From the IMG/VR virus record IMGVR_UViG_2690315742_000007: a DNA stretch of 46,788 nt; one strand, written 5' to 3'. The translations under genes and the position numbers were made by a program. Below, one piece after another: positions 3,309 through 45,149 of the stretch (its first letter is position 1; every line of letters begins with the position of its first letter). The notes beneath the pieces are model-generated. The model did no database searches, had not been told where the DNA came from, and was given only the letters and a program-made list of their open reading frames with translations. The stretch is from a virus (taxonomy: Duplodnaviria; Heunggongvirae; Uroviricota; Caudoviricetes).

Positions 3309-3884
3309 CTACGGCAGTGCTGGCCATTCAATATCCTGTGCAGTTGACGTATCAACACGGTTCAGCAATACCCGATACTTTTTCCATGCTTCCAGCAACG
3401 AGATTTCTTCCTCCGTTGCAATTTCCAGATCTGCAGCATCCTGAAGCGGCGCAATATGCTCACTGGCTACCTGCATCAGGTTGTTTTTTGTTTCTTCCGC
3501 CTCCCGGATCCGGAACAGTTTTTCTGCTTCCGTATCCTTCACCCAGGCTGTGCCGTTCCACTTCTGAAACTCCCCTTCCGGCGATAACCAGGTAACATTT
3601 TCCGGTAACGGACCGAGTTCAGAAATAAATAACGCGTCGCCGGAAGCCACGTCATAAACCGTTTTACCCCGATGATCTTCAACGAGATGCCACGATGACT
3701 CATCACTGTTGAAAACAGCCACGAAGCCAGCCGGAATATCTGGCGGTGCAATATCGGTACTGTTTGCTGGCAGACCTGTATGAGGCGGAATATATGCATC
3801 ACCTTCACCAATAAATTCATTAGTTCCGGCCAGCAGATTATAAATTTTTATGGTCCGTGGTTGTTCACTCATTCTGAATGCCAT
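3309..3884 (-). CDS. tfa: Tail fiber assembly protein
   Basis: 191-aa ORF directly downstream of stf; recognisable Tfa-family sequence (lambda tfa / TfaQ-like). Confidence 0.8.
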
Positions 3885-6800
3885 TATGCAAGCCTCACAA
3901 TATAGTTAAATGCGATGTTTTTGACGGTGTTTTCCGCGTTACCAGCAGCGTTAACGGTGATGGTGTGTCCATGTGAACCAATCGCAACGGAGTGCGTATG
4001 AGCACCAATACCGACAGTATGTGCATGTGCGCCTGCGCTTGCAGCAGTGCCGGACAGCGAGTGGGTATGAGCACCATCTGATGATGTCTTCCCTGCATTA
4101 CGAGTCTGGCCACTACCGCTTGTTGTGCTCATAATCCCCGCGCTTAGATTTGAAATCGCGGTATAACCATTAGGGAAAATGCTCGTGTTCGTGCCACCAA
4201 ATGCACCGGAACTCTTGTGTTGGTGCGCACCGGCACTATTTGCGGTCCCGCTAATACTATGGGTATGCGCCCCGGTGTTATTCGTGGATTTGGTTCCGTA
4301 ATCAAACGACGATGTGGTTTTCGTCCCCAAATCCGTACTGGATGCGCTGGCGCTGTGGGTGTGCGATTTAATGCCGTCCTGTTCCTGAGATAATACGGCC
4401 CGACCACTGGCGGGCTTGCCCTTAATCGTCCAGCCACGCATATCAGGGATCACGCCTGACGGATAAGCAACTGCAAGTTTCGGGTATGCAGATTTGTCAA
4501 AAGTCTGCCCCTGCATCAGGGCATAACCAGACGGAACGGTATCTGATGGCCACGGGATTGGTGCACCGACTGGATAAAACTCTGCAGGAGGATGAGCCGA
4601 GGTGTAAAGCTGCGCCCACGGCGACCAGTTTGCGTCGGTCGTATCCCGTCGTGAACGAATAAATGCCGGAGCATGAGCACCGCTTGTACCACTCCAGCCG
4701 ATGAGTAACTCACCTTCGCCAACGGCTGTCATCCCTTTCAGGTGAATGATATTTCCATACGCTGTTGGATATCCGTTGTTATACACCTCGTATAACTCAA
4801 GACCTGCTGCCCCCTGCGTATTGTCTGTCAGCGCGGTTACCCGACCTTTTGAAGCCAGATTAACTGATGATACTGCTGTTCCACCTGACGGTAACGCCCC
4901 GATCTCTGATGCCGTTGGCTTATTTCTGGAGTTATAGTCCCTTCGCCAGCCAGGTGAATAATCTGTTCCGTGATTAATATAGGTAAACTGGGCGTTAGTT
5001 GTTCCACCACCAGTGGAGGTGGTCGGTGTGGTAATGCGGATCGTCATCGCTGACTTTATCCCCATTACTTCAATGACAGCTCCGGCGAGATGAATATTAC
5101 CGCAGTCAGTATCAGTAATGATTTTATTATTGCCATAAGACCAGGAACCCTTGCACATCCAGTATGGATGGTTAAATGCTCCCTGAGAATCCAGCCACTC
5201 GATAAACTGTGCAGTCGTCCAGTTTCCTGTTGTTGTGCTTACTGACCCACCGAAGGCACGGCAGGCACCAATATTTTTCGTAAAGGTATCTTTGCCAGGG
5301 ATATCCGCACCGTTCTGATCTTTCTGCAGACGTTTCTCAGCATTGTCATTGGCTGCTTTTACTGCCTTTGGTGTCGCGGCAAGCGTTTCAGACGTGCTGT
5401 TGGTCGCGCTGCTTAGCTGGATTATCCCTTTCTGTGCTGTCGTTGCATCCTGTGCGGTGTATTTCCCGTTAGCCAGGTCATACGCGGCCTTAACGGCTTT
5501 TGGTGTTGCCGCCAGTGACTCGGAAGTGCTGTTAGTCGCACTACTGAGCTGTACTATCCCCTTTTTCGTCGTGCTCGCATCCTCAAGCGCCACGGCGGAT
5601 GCAATATCCTCTGCCCGTTTTGCTGCTGTCTCGGCGCGCGTTGCTGCGGATTCTGCCGTACTTTTGCTCTGTGCTGCCGCTGCCGCACTGCCAGCAGCCT
5701 CTGTCGCCTTCGTGGATGCCGTCGTGGCGCTGCCCCTCGCTGCTGACGCCTGTCTGGTCGCCTCATCTTTTGAAGCAGACGCCGATGATGCCGATGACGC
5801 CGCCGAACTGGCGGACGATGCGGCAGCCGTTTTTGAGGATTCTGCGCTGGTTTCCGACGCTTTCGCGTTCGTTTCGGATGTCTTCGCTGCGGAAGCAGAC
5901 CTCGCTGCTGCGCTGGCCTGTTCAGTGGCTTCGCCAGCCTTCGTTGTGGCTGTTGAAGCGGATGATGCGGCGCTTTCTGCCGATTTTCCGGCGGCGGTGG
6001 CACTGACTGCTGCCTCCTCTGCCTTAATGGACGCCTCACGGGCCGATGATGCAGCTGTTGTCTCAGAGTCTGCCGCAGCTGAGGCGCTCTGTTCCGCTGC
6101 CGTTTCAGAAGACCTGGCGTTCGTCTCGGACGTTTTTGCCGCCTTCGCAGAATTTGCTGCCGCCGTTGCCGAGGAAGCGGCACTACTGGCGCTTGATGAT
6201 GCGTTCGTTTCTGATGATTTCGCTGCCTCTTTTGAGGCCGCCGCATCCCGGGCTGAAGTGGCGGCTTCTGACGCTTTCGTCGTCGCAGTGGATGCAGAAG
6301 TGGCTGCTGATTTTTGTGACGCTGCAGCATTCGTTTCTGACGTTTTCGCGGCACCGGCACTGGTGGCCGCCGCGCTTTTTGAGGACTCTGCAGCGGCAGC
6401 ACTTTTTGATGCTTCAGTGGCCTTTGTTGATGCCGTTCCTGCGCTGGAAGACGCCTCCTGAGCCGACGTCGCGGCCTGTCCGGCTGACGTGCTGGCTGCA
6501 CGCGCTGAGCCTGCAGCATCAGTCGCATGGGTTGCCGCCTCACTGGCAGATGTGCCGGCATCACTGGCTGACTTCTTCGCGGCTGCCGTGTTCTGTGCCA
6601 CCGCGGACGCGTTACGCGCCACCTCTTCCACCATCAGTTCAAAACGGCGCAGAGCCTCCGGACGGGCATCATCCTCCGTCATGGCACCGAGAAAATCATT
6701 CAGCGTACCGGGTCGGGAATCTTCATACACGGTGATGGTCCCGGCATGTGACGGCGGGAATCCTTCCACCAACAGAATAACGCTGTACTGACCGTACTCA

Positions 6801-28162: not shown

Positions 28163-28508
28163 GATGGTGTTAACTCCAGTCATCGCTGGCACTACCACTG
28201 CTGGTTCAGAGTTAAAAAAAACTATGATTTTTTTCATGATGTTACCGTAGTATGTGAGTATCCATCGAATAGACACCAAGCAAAAAAGCTCCCGAAGGAG
28301 CCTTCATTTTCACTTTTTTAAATCCAACGACAGACGGCTGGCATTTAAGTATTGTGAAATATTATCAAATGTAATCATCATTGATTTACAAAAGATACAT
28401 TTTGCCCCGAAAGGATTCATGTCAGAAACATCAAAAGATGATGTTCTATACTGGGAACCATGACAACACGGGCATCTAAAGTGAATATGGTTTGTAATAT
28501 TGTCTACC

Positions 28509-28721
28509 TCAAAGCGCCACTACATGAACAGCGGCAGGACCTTTAGGTCCGTTCTCAATACCAAATTCAACTTCCTGATTCTCAGTTAATGTTTTGAAAT
28601 CGTTGCTCTGAATTGCTGAGAAATGGACAAACACATCTTTGCTGCCATCTTTCGGCGTGATGAAACCAAAACCTTTTTCAGGGTTAAACCATTTCACTAA
28701 ACCAGTCATTTTGTTAGACAT
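28509..28721 (-). CDS. cspI: Cold shock protein CspI (CspA family)
   Basis: 70 aa, [38 protein letters not shown]...; RNP1/RNP2 motifs. Confidence 0.85.
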
Positions 28722-29083
28722 AATTATTACCTTTTGAAGAAATTAGCCCTTGGGCAGAATGGTCCGAAAAAAAATATCAGAGAGAAAAACCAACAAGGAA
28801 ATCTCAAGAGGTACAAATAATAAAATTATAACAATGACTGCTTCAGATAAATTTGTAACAAACCAGAACACCATTAACGCATGATTAACCACCCATAGCA
28901 AGGATTACTTTTGTAAAGAAAAACACAGCAATGAAAGAATAGCTTTATTTATTAATAAAACGTGTCATTCTGATTAAGACCTTTTATCTTACCCTTAAGA
29001 TTTCAGGAATTTTGGCTCATGGAAGAGTCCTTTTTATTTAAATTTTACATTCCGCGATGTAAATGTTCCGATTTAATATTACC

Positions 29084-31112: not shown

Positions 31113-31391
31113 GATTGTGGTGCTTTTTGTGGGAGTCATCCACTTACGCACTTTGTTTTGCCATGCCAGCAGTTAGCTTCTGCTGTAAAACTATTCATGC
31201 AGCAAACCTGCACTTCACCACAATGGTTAGCATACTTTTCCTGATTAAGATTTTGCCAAATATGCTAGCCATTGTTTCATGTATTGGACCTCCTTACTTT
31301 TTATTAAAGAGATCCAATATTCACTACTCTGTCCGTATCTCTACTCAGGCATCAGCCTTCTTCGTTATCGTATACAGACGAGCGATGAATT

Positions 31392-31607
31392 TTAATCAGT
31401 AATGATGACATTTGCTGCTGCAGGACCTTTAGCACCACTCTCTATAGAGAAGGTAACCTTTTGACCTTCAAATAAGGTTCGATAATTATCATTCTGAATC
31501 GCAGAAAAATGCACAAACACATCTTTACTACCATCAACAGGAGAAATAAAGCCGAAACCTTTATCAGCGTTAAACCATTTTACTAAACCAGTCATTTTAT
31601 TTGACAT
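31392..31607 (-). CDS. cspB: Cold shock protein CspB
   Basis: 71 aa, [34 protein letters not shown]... Confidence 0.85.
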
Positions 31608-31907
31608 TCTACATTCCTTAACTTGAGCCTTTCGGCATAAATGGTTTGCATAACAGAAACGACTTCGTACTTAATTGGAGAGACTCAAAGAAGGAATAAG
31701 TGAATAACACCTGAAATGAGAACTGCTTTAGTAAACTACTTCGTATATCGTCTGTTCTTCAAACCGACGCAATCATTAACGCATAGTTGAACATATGAAG
31801 CAATGTTTATTTTAGACATCCAGCCATCTTCAACCCCATCAAAAAACTATAGCTTTCTTCAGGAACGTGTGTATAGTGCGCCAAGTTATCAGTATTAAGG
31901 AATTTTT

Positions 31908-33307: not shown

Positions 33308-34357
33308 TTACGCCAGTACGCCAATTGTCAGCGCGCGATCGATAAAACGAAATATCAGCTCCAGTTGGGAGCCATACTTATCTTCAAATGCCACTGTATC
33401 CGTATGCAGCTCGTTGTGATGCTTTCTGCACAAAGGCAACACAAAGAGATCATGTGCTTTTGTTCCCATTCCGCCCTGCCCGTGACCAATCAGATGATGC
33501 GGATCGTCGGCTGGCATACCGCAGCAAGCACACGGCTGTGTCTTAACCCAACGTGTGTATTTCTCCTTAACCCAGCGGCGACGTTTAGGCAGCTTCATGA
33601 AAGATTCCGGAGACTCTGGATCAACGGTGATGCTTACCACCGTCTTTTCCTGTGGTGATTTTTGTTGCTGGTGGGCGTAAGGCAACGGTGCAAGATTTTT
33701 TGTGCGTTGTTTCAATATGCTGGTGGCGGTCTGCTCTCCCGGTACGATGTCGCTTTCGCGGTACACCGAGCAGATTTTTTCCGCTGGTAATCCCAGCGAA
33801 CGACGCGATACAGCCTCAGGTAGTGCATCCACCACCTGATTGCAGACCGCCCACCAGGATAATTCAGCCAAAGATAATTCCCGCTCCTGCGTACCGCTTA
33901 TTGCGTGACGGATGACGTCAATCACCCATGCTGTCAGATTTTGTTGAGCAAGCAGCTCCAGTGATTCCGATGTCTGGTCACGCAGTTGGTTGTCGCAGTG
34001 CCAGCACAACACCATTGCGCCGGTACCATAACGGTGAATGACTGTTTCAGTGTGATGGTAATCGCCATTAGGCCACTGGCAGGATGTAACATGACGTAAT
34101 AGCCAGTCGGACAATGCGCCAACGCCGCCAGCAGCACGAATCACCCGTTCGTTACTAAAAAACGGCAGCAATGTTTTGTCTTCCGCCAGCGGCTGGCGAA
34201 CGGCAGGAACGACTCCGGATGGCAGATTACGCATGCTTTTTGGTTCCGGTTCCACCAGCACTCGAGGATTATGAAATATCTGTATGGATTCACGGCCCGG
34301 CTTAAGGACCACCAGCCCAAGCTCAGGCACCAGAACAGGTCTAAGTAATACCCGCAC
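33308..34357 (-). CDS. ydfU: DUF968-family protein YdfU-like
   Basis: Start assigned to an in-frame GTG preceded by GGAGG (349 aa); C-terminal Cys/His cluster (CACCG...HHLIGHG...CRKHH). Longest ORF is 362 aa. Confidence 0.55.
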   Translation of the reverse strand: MRVLLRPVLVPELGLVVLKPGRESIQIFHNPRVLVEPEPKSMRNLPSGVVPAVRQPLAEDKTLLPFFSNERVIRAAGGVGALSDWLLRHVTSCQWPNGDYHHTETVIHRYGTGAMVLCWHCDNQLRDQTSESLELLAQQNLTAWVIDVIRHAISGTQERELSLAELSWWAVCNQVVDALPEAVSRRSLGLPAEKICSVYRESDIVPGEQTATSILKQRTKNLAPLPYAHQQQKSPQEKTVVSITVDPESPESFMKLPKRRRWVKEKYTRWVKTQPCACCGMPADDPHHLIGHGQGGMGTKAHDLFVLPLCRKHHNELHTDTVAFEDKYGSQLELIFRFIDRALTIGVLA

Positions 34358-36999: not shown

Positions 37000-38650
37000 G
37001 GGGACAGTCCACAAAACTGCCAACTTCCGCTTCTTGCTCTTAGCGGACATTAGCATAGGCTATTTACCATAACGCCTCATTACGCGCACCGCCCAGACTG
37101 ACTCAGCGCGTTTCTGGCATATCCCCGGTAAAACAAGTAACAAACCACCCGAAAATGAACACCAGAAACGCGACTTAAGAATCTACCCTATGAATGGATA
37201 TGCACTCAACCGAATCGATCTTGGTTTCAATCTTTTTTATCGGGATCAGGCTTCTTTTTAGGTAACTTCGGGGGCTTAACTTGCTGATGACTTTGCGTTC
37301 GGCGCGTAAGCCAGGGATGGTCAGCTTTAGGTTTAACATAGTATTTTGAGCGTAAATCAATACGGGCATTATCCACTCGTTCATGGACACTCTTTTCATC
37401 ATCCAGTGGTATAGGCTCCGGGCCATCAACATACTTTTCCCAGCCCAGCGCTTTCCCGTCATACAGAACGTTAATTTCACCGTCAAAGTTCTCGCATACA
37501 GTAACAACCGAATGCCTAAGTCGATATCCCCGGCCCTCACTGCGTACCTGAAACGCACTGCTTTTGTACTGGAAAGTGAGATTTTTAGACAGAACGCGCT
37601 TCGCCTGTAGGCTGAAGATATAACCCAGTTCCTCTTCAGAATGGTGCACATCAAGATGAGCATTATCAGTAGTACGAGGCGACGTAGCGAACCGGTTGTT
37701 ATAGGCTTCAATAAAGGTCGGCAACCATGCATTTGCTGTTTCAATATCACTGATATTCTGAAGCCGCATTTCTTTGACCAGCCTGTCCTGTAGTGTCTGA
37801 TTGGCGCGCTCTACCCGCCCTTTTGCCTGCGGGCTGTTGGCATGGATTGGCTCGATGCCCAGTGTCTTTATCGCACGAGTGAACTGGGTCAGCTCACCTT
37901 CCCGCTCTGGGTTATTTACCCTGAATATACTGTGTCTATCAGAGTAGAGAGCGAGCGGTACGCCATGATCATTAAGGTAACCCCGGAGGGTTTCCATGTA
38001 AGCCCGGGTTGTTTCAGCAGGCACAAAACGCAACGCCATCAACGCACTGGTGGCATCATCAATGAAAACGATCAGTGTACATCTGGGGCCTCGATTTTCA
38101 AACCAGTCATGAGGTGAGCCATCAATCTGGATCAGTTCACCGTAAGATGGTCGTCGCATGCGGCGTTGATATATACGGGCAATTTTACGACGGCGTTCAC
38201 GCCATAACCCCTCTTCTATCATCCACTTTCTGAGAGTTTCAACGGATAAAGATAAACCGTGTATCTCGCGCAATTTTTCGCACGCAAACGTAGGTCCAAA
38301 ATCAGCGTAACGGCCTTTGAGGAGTGAAATTACTGTTGCTCTGAATTCAGTAGAAAAGGAATTATTAGGACGCTTTCCACGTCGGTGGGAAACCAGACCA
38401 GAAGGCCCTTCATTTCTATACCGTTGCACCAGACGTTTAACCTGCCGAATAGAAATGCCAATGCGTGCCGCAGCTTGTTCCTGAATAATCTGAAGTCGGT
38501 GGAGTTCCTTATGACTCATCGTAACAGTCTCTTTGATCATGAAAAATCCCCCAGAGAATTGTCTGGGGACATTTTAGAATGGTTCAAAGGGGACATTACA
38601 GCTTGGTGTTAACAATAGCCTGCTTCTCCGTGCCTTTCGGCACGTAAGAG
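37000..38650 (-). mobile_element. Probable insertion element carrying the rve transposase; ends not resolved
   Basis: Transposase gene at a position that in K-12 Qin holds integrase and ydfW/ydfX remnants. I could not find clean terminal inverted repeats by eye; hairpin-like GGGGACA motifs occur near both ends. Confidence 0.4.
37227..38540 (-). CDS. DDE (rve/integrase-core) transposase-like protein with N-terminal HTH; IS481-like by architecture
   Basis: 437-aa ORF: N-terminal HTH (IGISIRQVKRLVQRY), central DDE region with a ...SPQAKGRVERANQTL... motif. Family call is from motif pattern only. Confidence 0.65.
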   Translation of the reverse strand: MIKETVTMSHKELHRLQIIQEQAAARIGISIRQVKRLVQRYRNEGPSGLVSHRRGKRPNNSFSTEFRATVISLLKGRYADFGPTFACEKLREIHGLSLSVETLRKWMIEEGLWRERRRKIARIYQRRMRRPSYGELIQIDGSPHDWFENRGPRCTLIVFIDDATSALMALRFVPAETTRAYMETLRGYLNDHGVPLALYSDRHSIFRVNNPEREGELTQFTRAIKTLGIEPIHANSPQAKGRVERANQTLQDRLVKEMRLQNISDIETANAWLPTFIEAYNNRFATSPRTTDNAHLDVHHSEEELGYIFSLQAKRVLSKNLTFQYKSSAFQVRSEGRGYRLRHSVVTVCENFDGEINVLYDGKALGWEKYVDGPEPIPLDDEKSVHERVDNARIDLRSKYYVKPKADHPWLTRRTQSHQQVKPPKLPKKKPDPDKKD

Positions 38651-38874
38651 GCTAACCTACATGTGTCTAGCATGAAATTGGCCTCAGATTAATGTTAAGC
38701 GTCTTGCAGGACGCGTAATGTTAACTGGGGCTTTTCTCTATCTGCCGTTGGTGTCCATGCCCGAGGCAGATAGCCTCAAGCACCCGCAGTCATTCTACTT
38801 AACTAAGATTTCCCCGCAAACCGTTTTTGTCCAGCACAGTAAATATCCAACTAAACCAATGGAGTTCGCTGTAT

Positions 38875-41393: not shown

Positions 41394-41422
41394 TAAGCGA
41401 AACAGCACCGCGAGGAATCAGT

Positions 41423-41641
41423 ATGCAGAAACGAGAACCCGTCATCATCGCGCCAGACTATACCGATGATGAACTTTATGAGTGGATGCGCCAGAAAATT
41501 AATGCAGCGCAGGATCTGAAATGGGCTAATGAAGCCAGGGCTAAGCAGGCTGAAAATCTGTCCGCTCTGGAGCAGGATATCACCAATCTGGAAAAAGCAG
41601 CGGCATTAAGCATTGCCAGAATGATTACATACCCGCGTTAG
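41423..41641 (+). CDS. ydfC: YdfC
   Basis: 72 aa, MQKREPVIIAPDYTDDELYEWMRQKINAAQDLKWANEARAKQAENLSALEQD... Confidence 0.75.
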   Translation: MQKREPVIIAPDYTDDELYEWMRQKINAAQDLKWANEARAKQAENLSALEQDITNLEKAAALSIARMITYPR

Positions 41642-41981
41642 TAGCTAATCAACAAAGCTAAGGTTAGTAATTAAGGAGTTCTCCACGGGTGAGGTGGAGT
41701 GCGTGCGCCGGACACGGGTGCGCATCCGGAACTGACAGTTTACTGAAAGGATATTTCCCTGAAAAGTCAGACCATAACGCGAAAGCGCACGGCGAGGTAG
41801 CTGGTTCATAGATAGCCTGTCGTTAAATTTTCGTCGACCGTGCGCTTCCGGTTGTGGCAACCCGCGAAATGGCGCGGCGGTAAGTATGGCGGGGTTATTC
41901 CTTCCCCGTTGAGGACACCGGGTTGTCAGGTTGACCATACGCTTAAGTGACAACCCCGCTGCAACGCCCTCTGTTATCAAT

Positions 41982-42034
41982 TTTCTGGTGACGTTTGGCG
42001 GTATCAGTTTTACTCCGTGACTGCTCTGCCGCCC
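41982..42034 (+). ncRNA. dicF: DicF small regulatory RNA (processed from the ydfABC-dicF-dicB transcript)
   Basis: tttctggtgacgtttggcggtatcagttttactccgtgactgctctgccgccc followed by a T-run; matches the 53-nt DicF sequence as I remember it. Confidence 0.8.
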
Positions 42035-42208
42035 TTTTTAAAGTGAATTTTGTGATGTGGTGAATGCGGCTGAGCGCACGCGGAACAGTTAAAACCAAAA
42101 ACAGTGTTATGGGTGGATTCTCTGTATCCGGCGTTAATTGTTAACTGGTTAACGTCACCTGGAGGCACCAGGCACTGCATCACAAAATTCATTGTTGAGG
42201 ACGCGATA

Positions 42209-42397
42209 ATGAAAACGTTATTACCAAACGTTAATACGTCTGAAGGTTGTTTTGAAATTGGTGTCACTATCAGTAACCCAGTATTTACTGAAGATGCCAT
42301 TAACAAGAGAAAACAAGAACGGGAGCTATTAAATAAAATATGCATTGTTTCAATGCTGGCTCGTTTACGTCTGATGCCAAAAGGATGTGCACAATGA
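42209..42397 (+). CDS. dicB: DicB cell-division inhibitor
   Basis: Internal ATG gives 62 aa: MKTLLPNVNTSEGCFEIGVTISNPVFTEDAINKRKQERELLNKICIVSMLARLRLMPKGCAQ. Confidence 0.85.
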   Translation: MKTLLPNVNTSEGCFEIGVTISNPVFTEDAINKRKQERELLNKICIVSMLARLRLMPKGCAQ

Positions 42398-42585: not shown

Positions 42586-42677
42586 AACAGTTCCGTAATA
42601 AATATCCGGTTTCATTCTTATATGCCAGCAATGGCAGGGATTTGTTCATCCTTAAATCTGTCATGAGGTTAAAACAA

Positions 42678-45149
42678 ATGAGTAAAGTCTTTATTTGCGC
42701 CGCTATTCCTGACGAACTGGCAACAAGGGAAGAAGGCGCTGTGGCTGTAGCCACAGCCATTGAAGCTGGCGACGAACGCCGTGCTCGAGCAAAATTTCAC
42801 TGGCAATTCCTGGAACATTATCCGGCTGCTCAGGACTGCGCTTATAAATTTATTGTCTGCGAGGATAAACCTGGCATACCCCGCCCTGCCCTCGATTCAT
42901 GGGATGCTGAATATATGCAGGAAAACCGCTGGGATGAGGAGTCTGCTTCTTTTGTCCCGGTTGAGACTGAATCCGATCCGATGAACGTCACTTTTGACAA
43001 GCTGGCCCCTGAAGTACAGAACGCTGTCATGGTTAAGTTCGACACATGTGAAAACATCACCGTTGATATGGTTATTAGCGCACAGGAATTGTTGCAGGAA
43101 GACATGGCAACATTCGACGGACATATCGTTGAAGCGTTGATGAAAATGCCAGAAGTTAACGCCATGTATCCGGAGCTTAAGTTGCACGCCATTGGGTGGG
43201 TTAAGCATAAATGTATTCCTGGTGCTAAATGGCCCGAAATTCAGGCAGAGATGCGCATCTGGAAAAAACGTCGCGAAGGTGAACGCAAGGAAACCGGAAA
43301 ATACACGTCTGTTGTTGATCTCGCCCGCGCCAGAGCCAATCAACAGTACACTGAAAATTCAACAGGAAAAATCAGCCCGGTCATTGCTGCCATTCATCGC
43401 GAATACAAGCAGACATGGAAAACACTGGATGACGAACTGGCCTACGCTCTCTGGCCTAGTGATGTGGATGCCGGAAACATTGACGGCAGCATCCATCGCT
43501 GGGCAAAAAAAGAAGTTATCGACAACGACCGCGAAGACTGGAAGCGTATCTCGGCATCAATGCGCAAACAGCCTGATGCCCTTCGCTACGACCGCCAAAC
43601 TATTTTTGGCCTTGTCCGTGAGCGTCCGATCGACATTCACAAAGATCCCGTAGCACTGAACAAATATATCTGCGAATACCTGACGACAAAGGGCGTGTTT
43701 GAGAATGAAGAAACAGACCTGGGCACTGTTGATGTTCTCCAGTCATCAGAAACACAAACTGATGCAGTGGAAACTGAGGTATCTGATATCCCAAAAAATG
43801 AAACCGCGCCGGAAGCTGAACCATCTGTAGAGCGTGAGGGGCCGTTCTATTTCCTCTTCGCAGATAAGGACGGAGAAAAATACGGTCGCGCAAACAAACT
43901 CTCTGGTCTGGATAAGGCACTGGCTGCTGGCGCCACTGAAATCACAAAAGAAGAATATTTTGCCCGAAAAAATGGCACATACACGGGCTTACCGCAAAAT
44001 GTAGATACCGCTGAAGATTCAGAACAACCAGAGCCGATAAAAGTTACCGCTGACGAAGTAAACAAAATTATGCAGGCAGCCAATATCAGCCAGCCTGACG
44101 CCGATAAGTTGCTTGCTGCATCACGTGGTGAATTTGTTGAAGGGATTAGTGACCCGAATGATCCGAAATGGGTTAAGGGGCTCCAGACCCGCGATTCTGT
44201 GAACCAGAACCAGCATGAATCGGAACGGAACTACCAAAAAGCGGAACAAAACAGTCCAAATGCGTTACAAAACGAGCCAGAAACGAAACAGCCTGAACCA
44301 GTAGCGCAACAGGAAGTGGAAAAAGTCTGCACCGCCTGCGGTCAGACCGGCGGCGGCAACTGCCCTGATTGTGGCGCGGTGATGGGCGACGCAACATACC
44401 AAGAAACATTCGATGAAGAGTATCAGGTTGAAGTTCAGGAAGATGATCCGGAGGAAATGGAAGGCGCTGAACATCCACACAAGGAGAACACTGGCGGCAA
44501 TCAGCATCACAATAGCGATAATGAAACTGGCGAGACGGCAGATCACCCAATTAAGGTGAACGGTCATCACGAAATCACATCCACCAGCAGGACGTGTGAC
44601 CATCTAATGATCGACCTTGAAACCATGGGAAAAAATCCTGATGCCCCGATCATCTCAATAGGTGCAATATTTTTCGATCCGCAAACCGGAGATATGGGAC
44701 CGGAATTTAGTAAGACTATCGATCTGGAAACTGCTGGCGGAGTCATTGATCGGGACACCATTAAATGGTGGCTTAAGCAATCACGCGAAGCGCAATCTGC
44801 CATTATGACCGATGAAATCCCGTTAGATGATGCACTGTTACAATTGCGAGAATTTATCGACGAAAACTCCGGTGAATTTTTTGTTCAGGTTTGGGGAAAT
44901 GGAGCCAACTTCGACAACACGATTTTGCGCCGTTCATACGAACGGCAGGGGATCCCCTGCCCGTGGCGTTACTACAACGATCGCGATGTACGCACAATCG
45001 TTGAGCTGGGGAAAGCCATAGACTTCGATGCCAGAACGGCTATTCCATTCGAAGGTGAGCGCCATAATGCACTTGATGACGCCCGTTACCAGGCAAAATA
45101 CGTTTCAGTTATCTGGCAAAAACTGATCCCGAGTCAGGCTGATTCTTAA
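42678..45149 (+). CDS. ydfE: YdfE-like multidomain protein, full length: N-terminal YdfE domain, acidic linker, zinc ribbon, C-terminal DEDDh-type 3'-5' exonuclease-like domain
   Basis: 823 aa from internal ATG (MSKVFICAAIPDELATREEGAVAVA...). Zn-ribbon CTACGQTGGGNCPDCG; C-terminal motifs DLETMG ... WGNGANFD ... HNALDDA typical of DnaQ-like exonucleases. Confidence 0.6.
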   Translation: MSKVFICAAIPDELATREEGAVAVATAIEAGDERRARAKFHWQFLEHYPAAQDCAYKFIVCEDKPGIPRPALDSWDAEYMQENRWDEESASFVPVETESDPMNVTFDKLAPEVQNAVMVKFDTCENITVDMVISAQELLQEDMATFDGHIVEALMKMPEVNAMYPELKLHAIGWVKHKCIPGAKWPEIQAEMRIWKKRREGERKETGKYTSVVDLARARANQQYTENSTGKISPVIAAIHREYKQTWKTLDDELAYALWPSDVDAGNIDGSIHRWAKKEVIDNDREDWKRISASMRKQPDALRYDRQTIFGLVRERPIDIHKDPVALNKYICEYLTTKGVFENEETDLGTVDVLQSSETQTDAVETEVSDIPKNETAPEAEPSVEREGPFYFLFADKDGEKYGRANKLSGLDKALAAGATEITKEEYFARKNGTYTGLPQNVDTAEDSEQPEPIKVTADEVNKIMQAANISQPDADKLLAASRGEFVEGISDPNDPKWVKGLQTRDSVNQNQHESERNYQKAEQNSPNALQNEPETKQPEPVAQQEVEKVCTACGQTGGGNCPDCGAVMGDATYQETFDEEYQVEVQEDDPEEMEGAEHPHKENTGGNQHHNSDNETGETADHPIKVNGHHEITSTSRTCDHLMIDLETMGKNPDAPIISIGAIFFDPQTGDMGPEFSKTIDLETAGGVIDRDTIKWWLKQSREAQSAIMTDEIPLDDALLQLREFIDENSGEFFVQVWGNGANFDNTILRRSYERQGIPCPWRYYNDRDVRTIVELGKAIDFDARTAIPFEGERHNALDDARYQAKYVSVIWQKLIPSQADS

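Follow-up and report, generated by a model that had tools for sequence, protein, structure and literature searches.

The small RNA (sRNA) DicF derives from the dicBp polycistron (Ragunathan et al. 2023, PMC10448788). The forms described include a 190-nt species, which is lost in delta-rnc and accumulates in rne-ts, and a 53-nt form, which needs RNase E and vanishes in rne-ts (PMC10448788, citing Faubladier 1990 for the processing). In the same study, primer extension placed the start of the 190-nt species inside the sequence displayed from gguagcugg onward (position 41806 here), the RNase III cut was given as '+813/814', and the long form was reported as a stable species accumulating in stationary phase (PMC10448788). 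The upstream ~137 nt of this precursor have been treated in the literature as precursor, as a long untranslated region (UTR) or as the ydfC 3' UTR. The present analysis deals with these nucleotides in a 46,788-nt stretch of viral DNA (IMG/VR record IMGVR_UViG_2690315742_000007, hereafter the window), a Qin-type lambdoid prophage of Escherichia coli in which a conserved, structured RNA domain of 115 nt was found directly upstream of dicF. The 190-nt DicF precursor is the same molecule: the domain is its non-DicF part, a hairpin ahead of the domain fits the RNase III step and the linker behind it fits the RNase E step. In the literature on the DicF precursor, neither a conserved fold, nor a presence in phages P1 and P7, nor a conservation higher than that of the seed was found described, and Faubladier 1990, Faubladier 1994 and Lobocka 2004 may already discuss conservation. 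What was known before comprises the precursor, its cleavage by RNase III and by RNase E and the 190-nt species; the domain itself is apparently undescribed.

ArcZ and RprA are operon- or 3'UTR-derived sRNAs matured by structure-guided RNase E, and MicL reportedly belongs with them, its stem-loops being said to 'direct precise processing' (title listed in PMC9438474). In sRNAs of this type, as in the DicF precursor, RNase E cuts a single-stranded stretch between stable structures and releases a short Hfq-binding, terminator-bearing sRNA. However, their discarded 5' part is poorly conserved and their seed conserved, whereas identity is 0.9 in the present domain and 0.4 at the seed start, and the 5' part of the DicF precursor is an elaborate junction with a pseudoknot. 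A prophage sRNA family with a conserved scaffold and a fast-changing seed is also known in the anti-sRNAs AgvB and AsxR (PMC4104026), but these lie downstream of PR', measure 51-60 nt and are conserved on the 3' side and variable on the 5' side (PMC4104026). As sRNAs of the late region, AgvB/AsxR and the Pas sRNAs were set aside as unrelated, with no Rfam match to AgvB/AsxR at this locus.

The HK022 putL/putR RNAs and the HK639 putL-like RNA are likewise cis-encoded structured RNAs in early-operon leaders upstream of terminators, in phages without a recognisable N, and their two adjacent stem-loops have a total size similar to that of helices P2 and P3 of the domain (Table 1). The domain differs by two extra helices and a pseudoknot and is always fused to an sRNA seed and a terminator. 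RNAs of the put type suppress termination without factors, in dependence on the zinc-binding domain of the RNA polymerase beta' subunit. The location of the domain is that of a put RNA, in an early-operon leader with a promoter upstream and terminators downstream. Its covariance model gave no match at E<=10 in the early region of HK022, which was searched as a whole as the put sites are not explicitly annotated in this sparse record, or anywhere in the HK639 genome. When the 126-nt element of HK639 was aligned locally with the domain, the score was 16-18 against a shuffle mean of ~15, a level reached by 47-178 of 500 shuffles. This element is annotated in HK639 (L148) as 'putL-like antiterminator RNA' at 34187-34312 on the minus strand, together with a 60-nt 'M3-like RNA'; it holds a 14-nt near-match to the domain (GCGGCAAUUAUGGC vs GCGGUAAGUAUGGC), not significant against shuffles.

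A lambda-type nut site consists of boxA (CGCUCUUA / UGCUCUUUA) followed by the boxB hairpin, the N protein being encoded downstream. The domain occupies the same early-left operon place as lambda nutL, and several relatives have a boxA-like UGCUCU(Y)U beside it. In the window, UGCGCUUCC (41841-41849) stands there; a boxB-like hairpin with a GNRA-type pentaloop is missing, as is any N-like protein in the vicinity, and the assignment as a lambda-type nut site was rejected. BoxA-like words reading UGCUCUCAG, UGCUCUCUU or UGCUCUUUC were observed directly 5' of P1 (window 41840-41849) in cdtI, Citrobacter, Erwinia, Izhakiella, Trabulsiella and viral variants.

The stretch 41851-41965 is a discrete folded RNA domain, a conclusion well supported by covariation. 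Folded in isolation, its 117 nt give a four-helix junction with a minimum free energy (MFE) of -46.7 kcal/mol, and RNAalifold, applied to 16 diverse copies, predicts P1a, P2 and P3 independently. Covariation was counted over 36 pairs in 30 sequences sharing less than 97% identity with each other. Standard pairs filled 91.7% of the cells, compared with 30-55% when the 3' partners were slid by 1-3 columns; changes on both sides were seen in 12 pairs, a count reached by 2 of 500 shuffles, and the covariation score of 0.165, against 0.114 in shuffles, was reached by none of 500. Five of the doubly changed pairs are in P3 (for example UUGU/ACAA, which becomes UAAC/GUUA in Izhakiella) and three in helix P1, while the P2 hairpin has at least ten different stem sequences among the relatives.

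Individual pairs give the same picture across 174 loci, where the closing pair of the P2 base is U-A in 144, C-G in 29 and U.G in one, and the informative pair of the pseudoknot U-A in 155, C-G in 13 and U.G in six, with zero mismatches at either. A scan dedicated to the mismatched pseudoknot combination returned no viral contigs, and contigs chosen solely for a 5' C in the P2 base had the compensating G in 29 of 29 cases. Phages P1 and P7, which are close relatives, differ at both of these pairs, each time with compensation. A metagenome scan for a purine before CAGG in P3 found one contig, in which the change is uncompensated. The search patterns fixed ~23 positions, whose invariance is partly by construction; the single pairs cited here were free to vary. 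On 100 viral loci (907 kb), the covariance model scored 83-118 bits with exactly one match per locus, and consequently no second, putR-like copy was present in them.

Checked against Rfam 15, the domain matched no family either at gathering score or at E<=10 when 41840-41985 was searched alone, and none was found over it in 14 related loci. Self-cleaving ribozymes and the other Rfam 15 families were thereby discarded as candidates (0 matches at E<=10 on 41840-41985). A tRNA or tmRNA was likewise rejected, with nothing reported by ARAGORN in 41400-42300 and no Rfam tRNA at E<=10, the cloverleaf likeness being one of four-way topology alone. The domain is a candidate for a new Rfam family.

Table 1. 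Features of the ydfC-dicF spacer and of DicF in window coordinates.
Feature	Coordinates	Strand	Evidence
Conserved structured RNA domain (four-helix junction and pseudoknot)	41851-41965	+	MFE, RNAalifold, covariation, covariance model
Helix P1	41851-58/41958-65	+	MFE of the isolated 117 nt
Helix P1a	41862-66/41873-77	+	MFE; RNAalifold
P2 base	41878-81/41917-20	+	MFE; RNAalifold
P2 hairpin	41890-94/41904-08	+	MFE; RNAalifold
Helix P3	41921-28/41948-55; alternative pair G41920-C41956	+	MFE; RNAalifold
Pseudoknot (GUAUGG in P2 internal loop with CCAUAC in P3 loop)	41884-89/41935-40	+	Added to the predicted fold, supported by covariation
Variable, non-coding 5' part of the ydfC-dicF spacer	41642-41770	+	Mosaic BLAST matches; no conserved structure
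Long hairpin, putative substrate for the published RNase III cut	41772-41857	+	MFE -37.4 kcal/mol, z -2.53
Predicted RNase III cut (~41849/41850) giving the first nucleotide of the 190-nt DicF species	41850	+	190-nt count back from 42039
Single-stranded linker GCCCUCUGUUAUCAAUU, 17 nt, with putative RNase E site for the DicF 5' end	41966-41982	+	Between the end of P1 and the RF00039 start
DicF sRNA (Rfam 41983-42034) and terminator U-tract	41983-42039	+	RF00039, 76.7 bits, E 2.6e-15; GGCGG...CCGCCC UUUUU

BLAST comparisons with phages, plasmids and 5426 complete E. coli genomes, in which the spacer was the query, confine the widely shared part to query ~210-332 (window ~41851-41973). A spacer match was obtained in 4429 of the 5426 genomes, at a median of two places and up to eight. 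The domain is present in Qin-like prophages, in functional lambdoid phages (mEp460, Tritos, Evi, HannyBb, cdtI, Ayreon, 2H10, Stx2c and PPompW phages and Salmonella phage F1055), in pPE4, deposited as a phage of Actinobacillus, and in P1, P7 and ~500 P1-like plasmids. When a single genome of each bacterial species was scanned with a pattern, the domain turned up in Escherichia, Shigella, Citrobacter, Serratia symbiotica, Trabulsiella, Erwinia and Izhakiella; the same scan also matched three gut metagenome-assembled genomes, seemingly through contaminating coliphage contigs.

In every case, the domain lies in a repressor-controlled early operon. In phage P1 it follows the C1-controlled P1ban/P2ban promoters by ~35 nt and precedes tRNA genes and ban; in cdtI it comes after cI, and in pPE4 after dicA and before kil. 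The functional phage mEp460 has the Qin layout, with the domain ahead of dicB, an exonuclease VIII-like gene and xis, and in the window itself the domain is ~800 nt from the promoter, after ydfABC. No neighbour protein is common to all these contexts, no N-type antiterminator was recognisable among them and the nearby open reading frames (ORFs) match PHROGs of unknown function alone. The Rfam families isrK and C4 antisense RNA were observed a few hundred bases from the domain in several lambdoid loci (L084, 1171-1359; L103, 11185-11380; L003, 40-228 on the minus strand), and these early regions thus pack structured RNAs closely. As for mEp460, the counterpart of its gene annotated as cryptic-prophage exodeoxyribonuclease (RecE/ExoVIII-like) is an intact 835-aa ORF located after ydfD in the window (42642-45149, plus strand). 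The equivalent gene is presumably disrupted in K-12 Qin, and we therefore take the window prophage to be less decayed than K-12 Qin.

What follows the domain is much less constant. The copies continue with a short single-stranded stretch and then a GC-rich hairpin with a U-tract, flagged by script downstream of 72 of 84 unique sequences and seen by eye in 11 of the other 12, the last being a decayed Shigella copy. This variable segment, hereafter the cargo, falls into at least 11 classes at 75% identity, and RF00039, the Rfam model of DicF, matches the DicF-like classes exclusively. Its seed segment measures ~10-60 nt by eye, the scripted distance from domain to U-run is mostly 30-120 nt and the spacing is not fixed. 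The halves of the domain core have mean pairwise identities of 0.91 and 0.89, whereas the value falls to 0.52 for the P2 hairpin, 0.51 for the 5' flank and 0.40 where the cargo starts. The domain is thus the 5' body of a ~170-190-nt phage RNA of which the 3' part is a variable seed and an intrinsic terminator. By these values, the usual pattern of a processed sRNA is inverted, conservation residing in what is cut off.

A 'dicF-like region' annotated in phage P1 (NC_005856 68791-68892) overlaps the P1 copy of helix P3 together with the P1 cargo and terminator, and the similarity between P1 and Qin had therefore been noticed by the P1 annotators. That annotation differs from the domain in spanning only its 3' half and in being named after dicF; the P1 cargo is not DicF, with no RF00039 match in the P1 locus.

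Several further observations concern the cargo. In pPE4 (L002, 2600-2770), a record labelled Actinobacillus phage of which the early region is 85% identical to coliphage sequence, cargo and terminator form a direct tandem duplication with two copies of CCCCGCCACAACAACCCAUGUUGAUUACCUUUUGGCGGG...CCCGCCCUUUUUAAAGUGAAUUUUGUGAU. In Erwinia (L138, ~4640-4760), Izhakiella (L139), Trabulsiella (L136), Serratia symbiotica (L128) and F1055 (L147, 3120-3310), a Shine-Dalgarno sequence and a small ORF are inserted in the cargo terminator hairpin. This ORF begins MFYRG... or VFCRD..., has a conserved FTQQxRASPxDGLITQSTR and crosses the 3' arm of the terminator and the U-tract into a second long hairpin; by its sequence, the arrangement looks like an attenuator of the leader-peptide type. 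In cdtI-type phages, the sequence downstream of the small-ORF site is kept and the start is missing. Between dicF and dicB of the window, 42032-42241 (plus strand) gave a match to the sRNA family STnc100 (RF02076) that, with 34.4 bits, stays below the gathering score of 47 (E 1.4e-5 in a 1-kb search). The stretch, an element conserved in pPE4 and Qin-type loci, is closed by a long helix of AAGUGAAUUUUGUGAUG with CAUCACAAAAUUCAUU, which is probably the downstream RNase III site giving the 72-nt DicF 3' end of the literature.

Returning to the spacer as a whole, the locus reads dicC (minus strand), dicA, ydfA, ydfB, ydfC (ending at 41641), DicF at 41983-42034, dicB and ydfD, and 41642-41981 is the untranslated stretch that separates ydfC from dicF. 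It is 100% identical to E. coli ATCC 8739 and phage PhiR42_1 and 99.7% to K-12 by BLAST. The RF00039 model (52 nt, at least 48 bits) found nothing inside it, even at E<=10, its match beginning at 41983. Elsewhere in the window, all other Rfam matches at gathering score are on the minus strand (3343-3541, 28482-28867, 31376-31768 and 38614-38785); they are IS009, two cspA-type thermoregulator leaders and the sok antitoxin RNA, and they fit the Qin gene set (cspB/F/I, hokD).

The original prediction, made from the letters alone, had singled out the whole 340 nt as a GC-rich, structured element, and the spacer turns out to be a composite of three parts, namely a variable spacer, an RNase III hairpin and the conserved domain. 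The GC enrichment exists: 0.529 in 41642-41981, against 0.478 in ydfABC, 0.424 from dicF to ydfD and 0.502 in the whole window. It is modest and uneven, being mostly in 41851-41965 (0.583). Against dinucleotide shuffles, the 340 nt had a z value of -2.64, or -2.84 when DicF was added, and the separate parts gave -2.03 (first 129 nt), -2.53 (hairpin) and -2.09 (domain); folding energy by itself is weak evidence and the comparative data are stronger. These data divide the predicted element: its 3' 115 nt covary and keep their fold in a discrete unit, whereas the first ~130 nt (41642-41770) do neither and form a variable mosaic in which neither a structure nor an ORF is conserved. In related loci, BLAST matches break near query positions 20, 40, 60, 120 and 210-220, a pattern that marks 41642-41770 as a mosaic spacer at the level of sequence.

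The reported lack of a sense-strand ORF of 60 aa or more also holds, the largest being 40, 36 and 29 aa. The 40-aa ORF starts with GTG behind AAGGAG (41689-41811); most close relatives have an in-frame stop at codon 11 and others have lost the Shine-Dalgarno sequence or the start. A C-to-A change common in relatives creates this stop and also breaks a strong predicted hairpin at ~41699-41724. On the antisense strand, a 111-aa ORF (41645-41980) is open over the whole spacer in the window, and several phage records annotate a 'hypothetical protein' across it, but in about half of 33 close relatives a 1-nt indel in the P2 loop shifts its frame or brings in a stop. With neither the sense 40-aa nor the antisense 111-aa ORF matching Pfam, and both broken in relatives, a protein-coding gene was rejected for either strand.

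Between the mosaic part and the domain, arms at ~41772-41797 and ~41833-41857 form a helix of ~25 bp with small bulges, long enough for an RNase III substrate, which calls for some two turns or more with little interruption. The complementary segments pointed out earlier belong to real helices, as GCGCACGG (41785-41792) pairs with CCGTGCGC (41838-41845) in the core of this one and GTCAGG...TGAC lies in P3. Among 44 unique relatives, the apex (~41798-41832, ~35 nt) is hypervariable with several unrelated replacements; the arms are nearly invariant, and their rare changes mostly turn G.U into G-C by U-to-C. The segment that begins with G41850, inside the 3' arm, and ends with the final U of the terminator tail (42039) measures exactly 190 nt, and it is from this length that we infer the cut at 41849/50. 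The published '+813/814' also falls there if transcription starts at ~41037, a start predicted from TTGACC-17-TAATCT, although this start-site estimate is weak; a simple promoter and terminator scan missed both dicBp and the DicF terminator, the latter having a loop longer than the scan allows. The hairpin would then be the RNase III step that is already known. The earlier proposal of an RNase III/E substrate platform is in that respect one already published, RNase III giving the 190-nt and RNase E the 53-nt DicF (PMC10448788). The accompanying view was right in assigning the region to the DicF precursor and in seeing more in it than an inert leader.

Positions 41851-41857 (GUUGUGG) belong both to the hairpin, as the end of its 3' arm, and to helix P1, as its 5' strand. 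Consequently the RNase III hairpin and P1 are mutually exclusive, and P1 can form only after, or instead of, the hairpin. The two mapped processing events, the first at its calculated position, bracket the domain closely: the 190-nt RNA starts 1 nt before P1, and DicF starts 17 nt after it. Starting so near P1, the 190-nt RNA would have its 5' end buried.

Taken together, the reading that we favour, though tentatively and at a little less than an even chance, is that the domain serves as the scaffold of a ~170-190-nt pre-sRNA, in which it would set the processing boundaries and the stability. Under this model, the RNase III cut at ~41849/50 would free GUUGUGG, which would then close P1 with CUGCAAC, and the new 5' end, 1 nt ahead of P1, would be buried at once in this helix. 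The compact domain on one side and the terminator hairpin on the other would leave the 17-nt linker as the sole accessible site for RNase E. An AU-rich CAA/UUUU site, such as the linker holds, fits the preference of this enzyme. The domain would thereby fix the 5' end of mature DicF and the rate of its release, and would slow down attack dependent on the 5' end, letting the long form persist as a reservoir, in line with its accumulation in stationary phase and in rne-ts. In phages P1 and P7, the same ~180-nt unit begins near the transcription start; as it lies ~35 nt after the C1-controlled Pban, no RNase III step would be needed, and for the same reason the Qin hairpin looks like a device for release from an operon, possibly an adaptation that recreates the 5' end of the unit from inside the polycistron.

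Several points weigh against a scaffold role. It is deduced from geometry, and what the domain would do to RNase E cleavage and to stability is deduced as well. Few simple processing signals require ~40 invariant nucleotides, many of them in loops, and a pseudoknot, and such conservation suggests a specific partner, be it RNA polymerase, a protein or a ligand; the apparent invariance comes partly from the search patterns, yet the P1, P7 and pPE4 copies found by BLAST agree with it. The linker is reduced to ~10 nt in some cargo classes, such as that of cdtI; the seed would there be inside or adjoining the domain, so that a short sRNA may not be released in all cases. Lastly, only Qin-type loci have the RNase III hairpin.

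A broader reading, possible but doubtful in our estimation, would make of the 115 nt an autonomous regulatory RNA of an undescribed class, acting either as a processive antiterminator, unrelated in sequence to put, that binds RNA polymerase, or as a protein- or ligand-sensing fold that splits transcription between termination (sRNA) and read-through into kil/dicB, recombination and excision genes of lambdoid and P1-like phages. Taken by itself, a processive antitermination element, put-like or a Nus-factor site through which the nascent RNA modifies RNA polymerase, is the strongest rival, albeit an unlikely one. It would let a part of the transcripts pass the DicF-type terminator and withstand Rho over the ~570-nt untranslated stretch, and so reach dicB/kil, the recombination genes and xis/int. 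The domain is indeed placed downstream of a repressor-controlled early promoter and directly before the first intrinsic terminator (P1 Pban, cdtI cI, pPE4 dicA, mEp460), with no N-type antiterminator recognised by PHROGs among the neighbouring small ORFs. P2 and P3 are adjacent stem-loops over 79 nt, near the ~70 nt of a two-stem put RNA (PMC9378689), HK639 has one 126-nt element annotated 'putL-like antiterminator RNA' in the corresponding position, many lambdoid variants have UGCUCU(Y)U just 5' of P1, and a processive mechanism would tolerate the varying distance to the terminator. On the other hand, neither the covariance model nor local alignment detects similarity to the put RNAs of HK022 or HK639, the boxA-like word of the window, UGCGCUUCC, is degenerate and hidden within the RNase III helix, and each locus has a single copy. 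A general element of this kind needs no sRNA seed and terminator fused to it in every locus, and in Northern blots the dicF-ending transcript is the main ydfA species in wild type (PMC10448788). That the domain acts in trans, as a ~133-nt 5' fragment (41850-41982) or within the long form, whether as a protein decoy, a second base-pairing RNA or a sponge, appears rather improbable to us. Loops and junction are near-invariant among phages with unrelated flanks, as expected for a specific partner, and the long form is stable and accumulates in stationary phase (PMC10448788). In most non-Qin variants, moreover, the 3' strand of helix P1 is CACAACA, a motif quoted as consensus target for the R1 seed of GcvB (PMC4104026); this strand is however base-paired in P1, and the motif is absent from the window (CUGCAACG at 41958-41965). 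The most conserved loop, CCAUAC, is itself engaged in the intramolecular pseudoknot that covariation supports, no conserved partner gene is found nearby in the contexts examined, and no discrete 5' fragment has been reported, the published blots having used DicF probes.

An attenuator resembling a riboswitch, in which the folding state would free GGCGCGGCGGUAAGUAUGG to pair with the 3' arm of the DicF terminator and so decide between termination (sRNA) and read-through (dicB), is very unlikely. A conserved aptamer-like fold followed by an intrinsic terminator is present, and the MFE structure of the 190 nt (-69.6 kcal/mol) pairs the domain strand GGCGCGGCGGUAAGUAUGGCGGGGU (41871-41895) with the 3' half of DicF (42010-42034), the terminator 3' arm included, at an energy close to that of domain plus terminator; the GGCGGUA of the domain also mimics the GGCGGUA of the terminator 5' arm in most cargo classes. 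Nevertheless, more than 100 nt separate the competing strand from the terminator downstream, which has its own 5' arm close at hand; the exchange is thus kinetically disfavoured, and no ligand or sensor is suggested. A conserved, mutually exclusive pairing at fixed geometry was not found: the spacing of domain and terminator varies, and the terminator of P1 and P7 (GCCCAUC/GGUGGGC) has no such complementarity though the domain is conserved. The least credible explanation, which we regard as hardly tenable, is that the conservation is not one of RNA at all and reflects a recombination linker, hitch-hiking DNA or the minus-strand 111-aa ORF. Phage mosaic boundaries do fall near the region, and the antisense frame with its 'hypothetical protein' annotations is open in the window. 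Against this stand the two-sided compensatory changes in four helices and the pseudoknot, with no mismatched combination in 174 loci, the disruption of the antisense frame in about half of the close relatives and its lack of a Pfam match, and the expression of the RNA as a defined species (PMC10448788).

DicF is among the oldest and most studied bacterial sRNAs, and its 190-nt form has so far been treated as a mere intermediate. With a domain conserved far beyond the seed, common to lambdoid phages and P1/P7 and present in most E. coli genomes, the question shifts from how DicF is trimmed to the role of the conserved domain. The exact structure, together with the compensatory mutants that it predicts, makes the scaffold, antiterminator and independent-RNA options directly testable. 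The domain also defines a family of uncharacterised DicF-like sRNAs with at least 11 seed classes, which could regulate different host targets.

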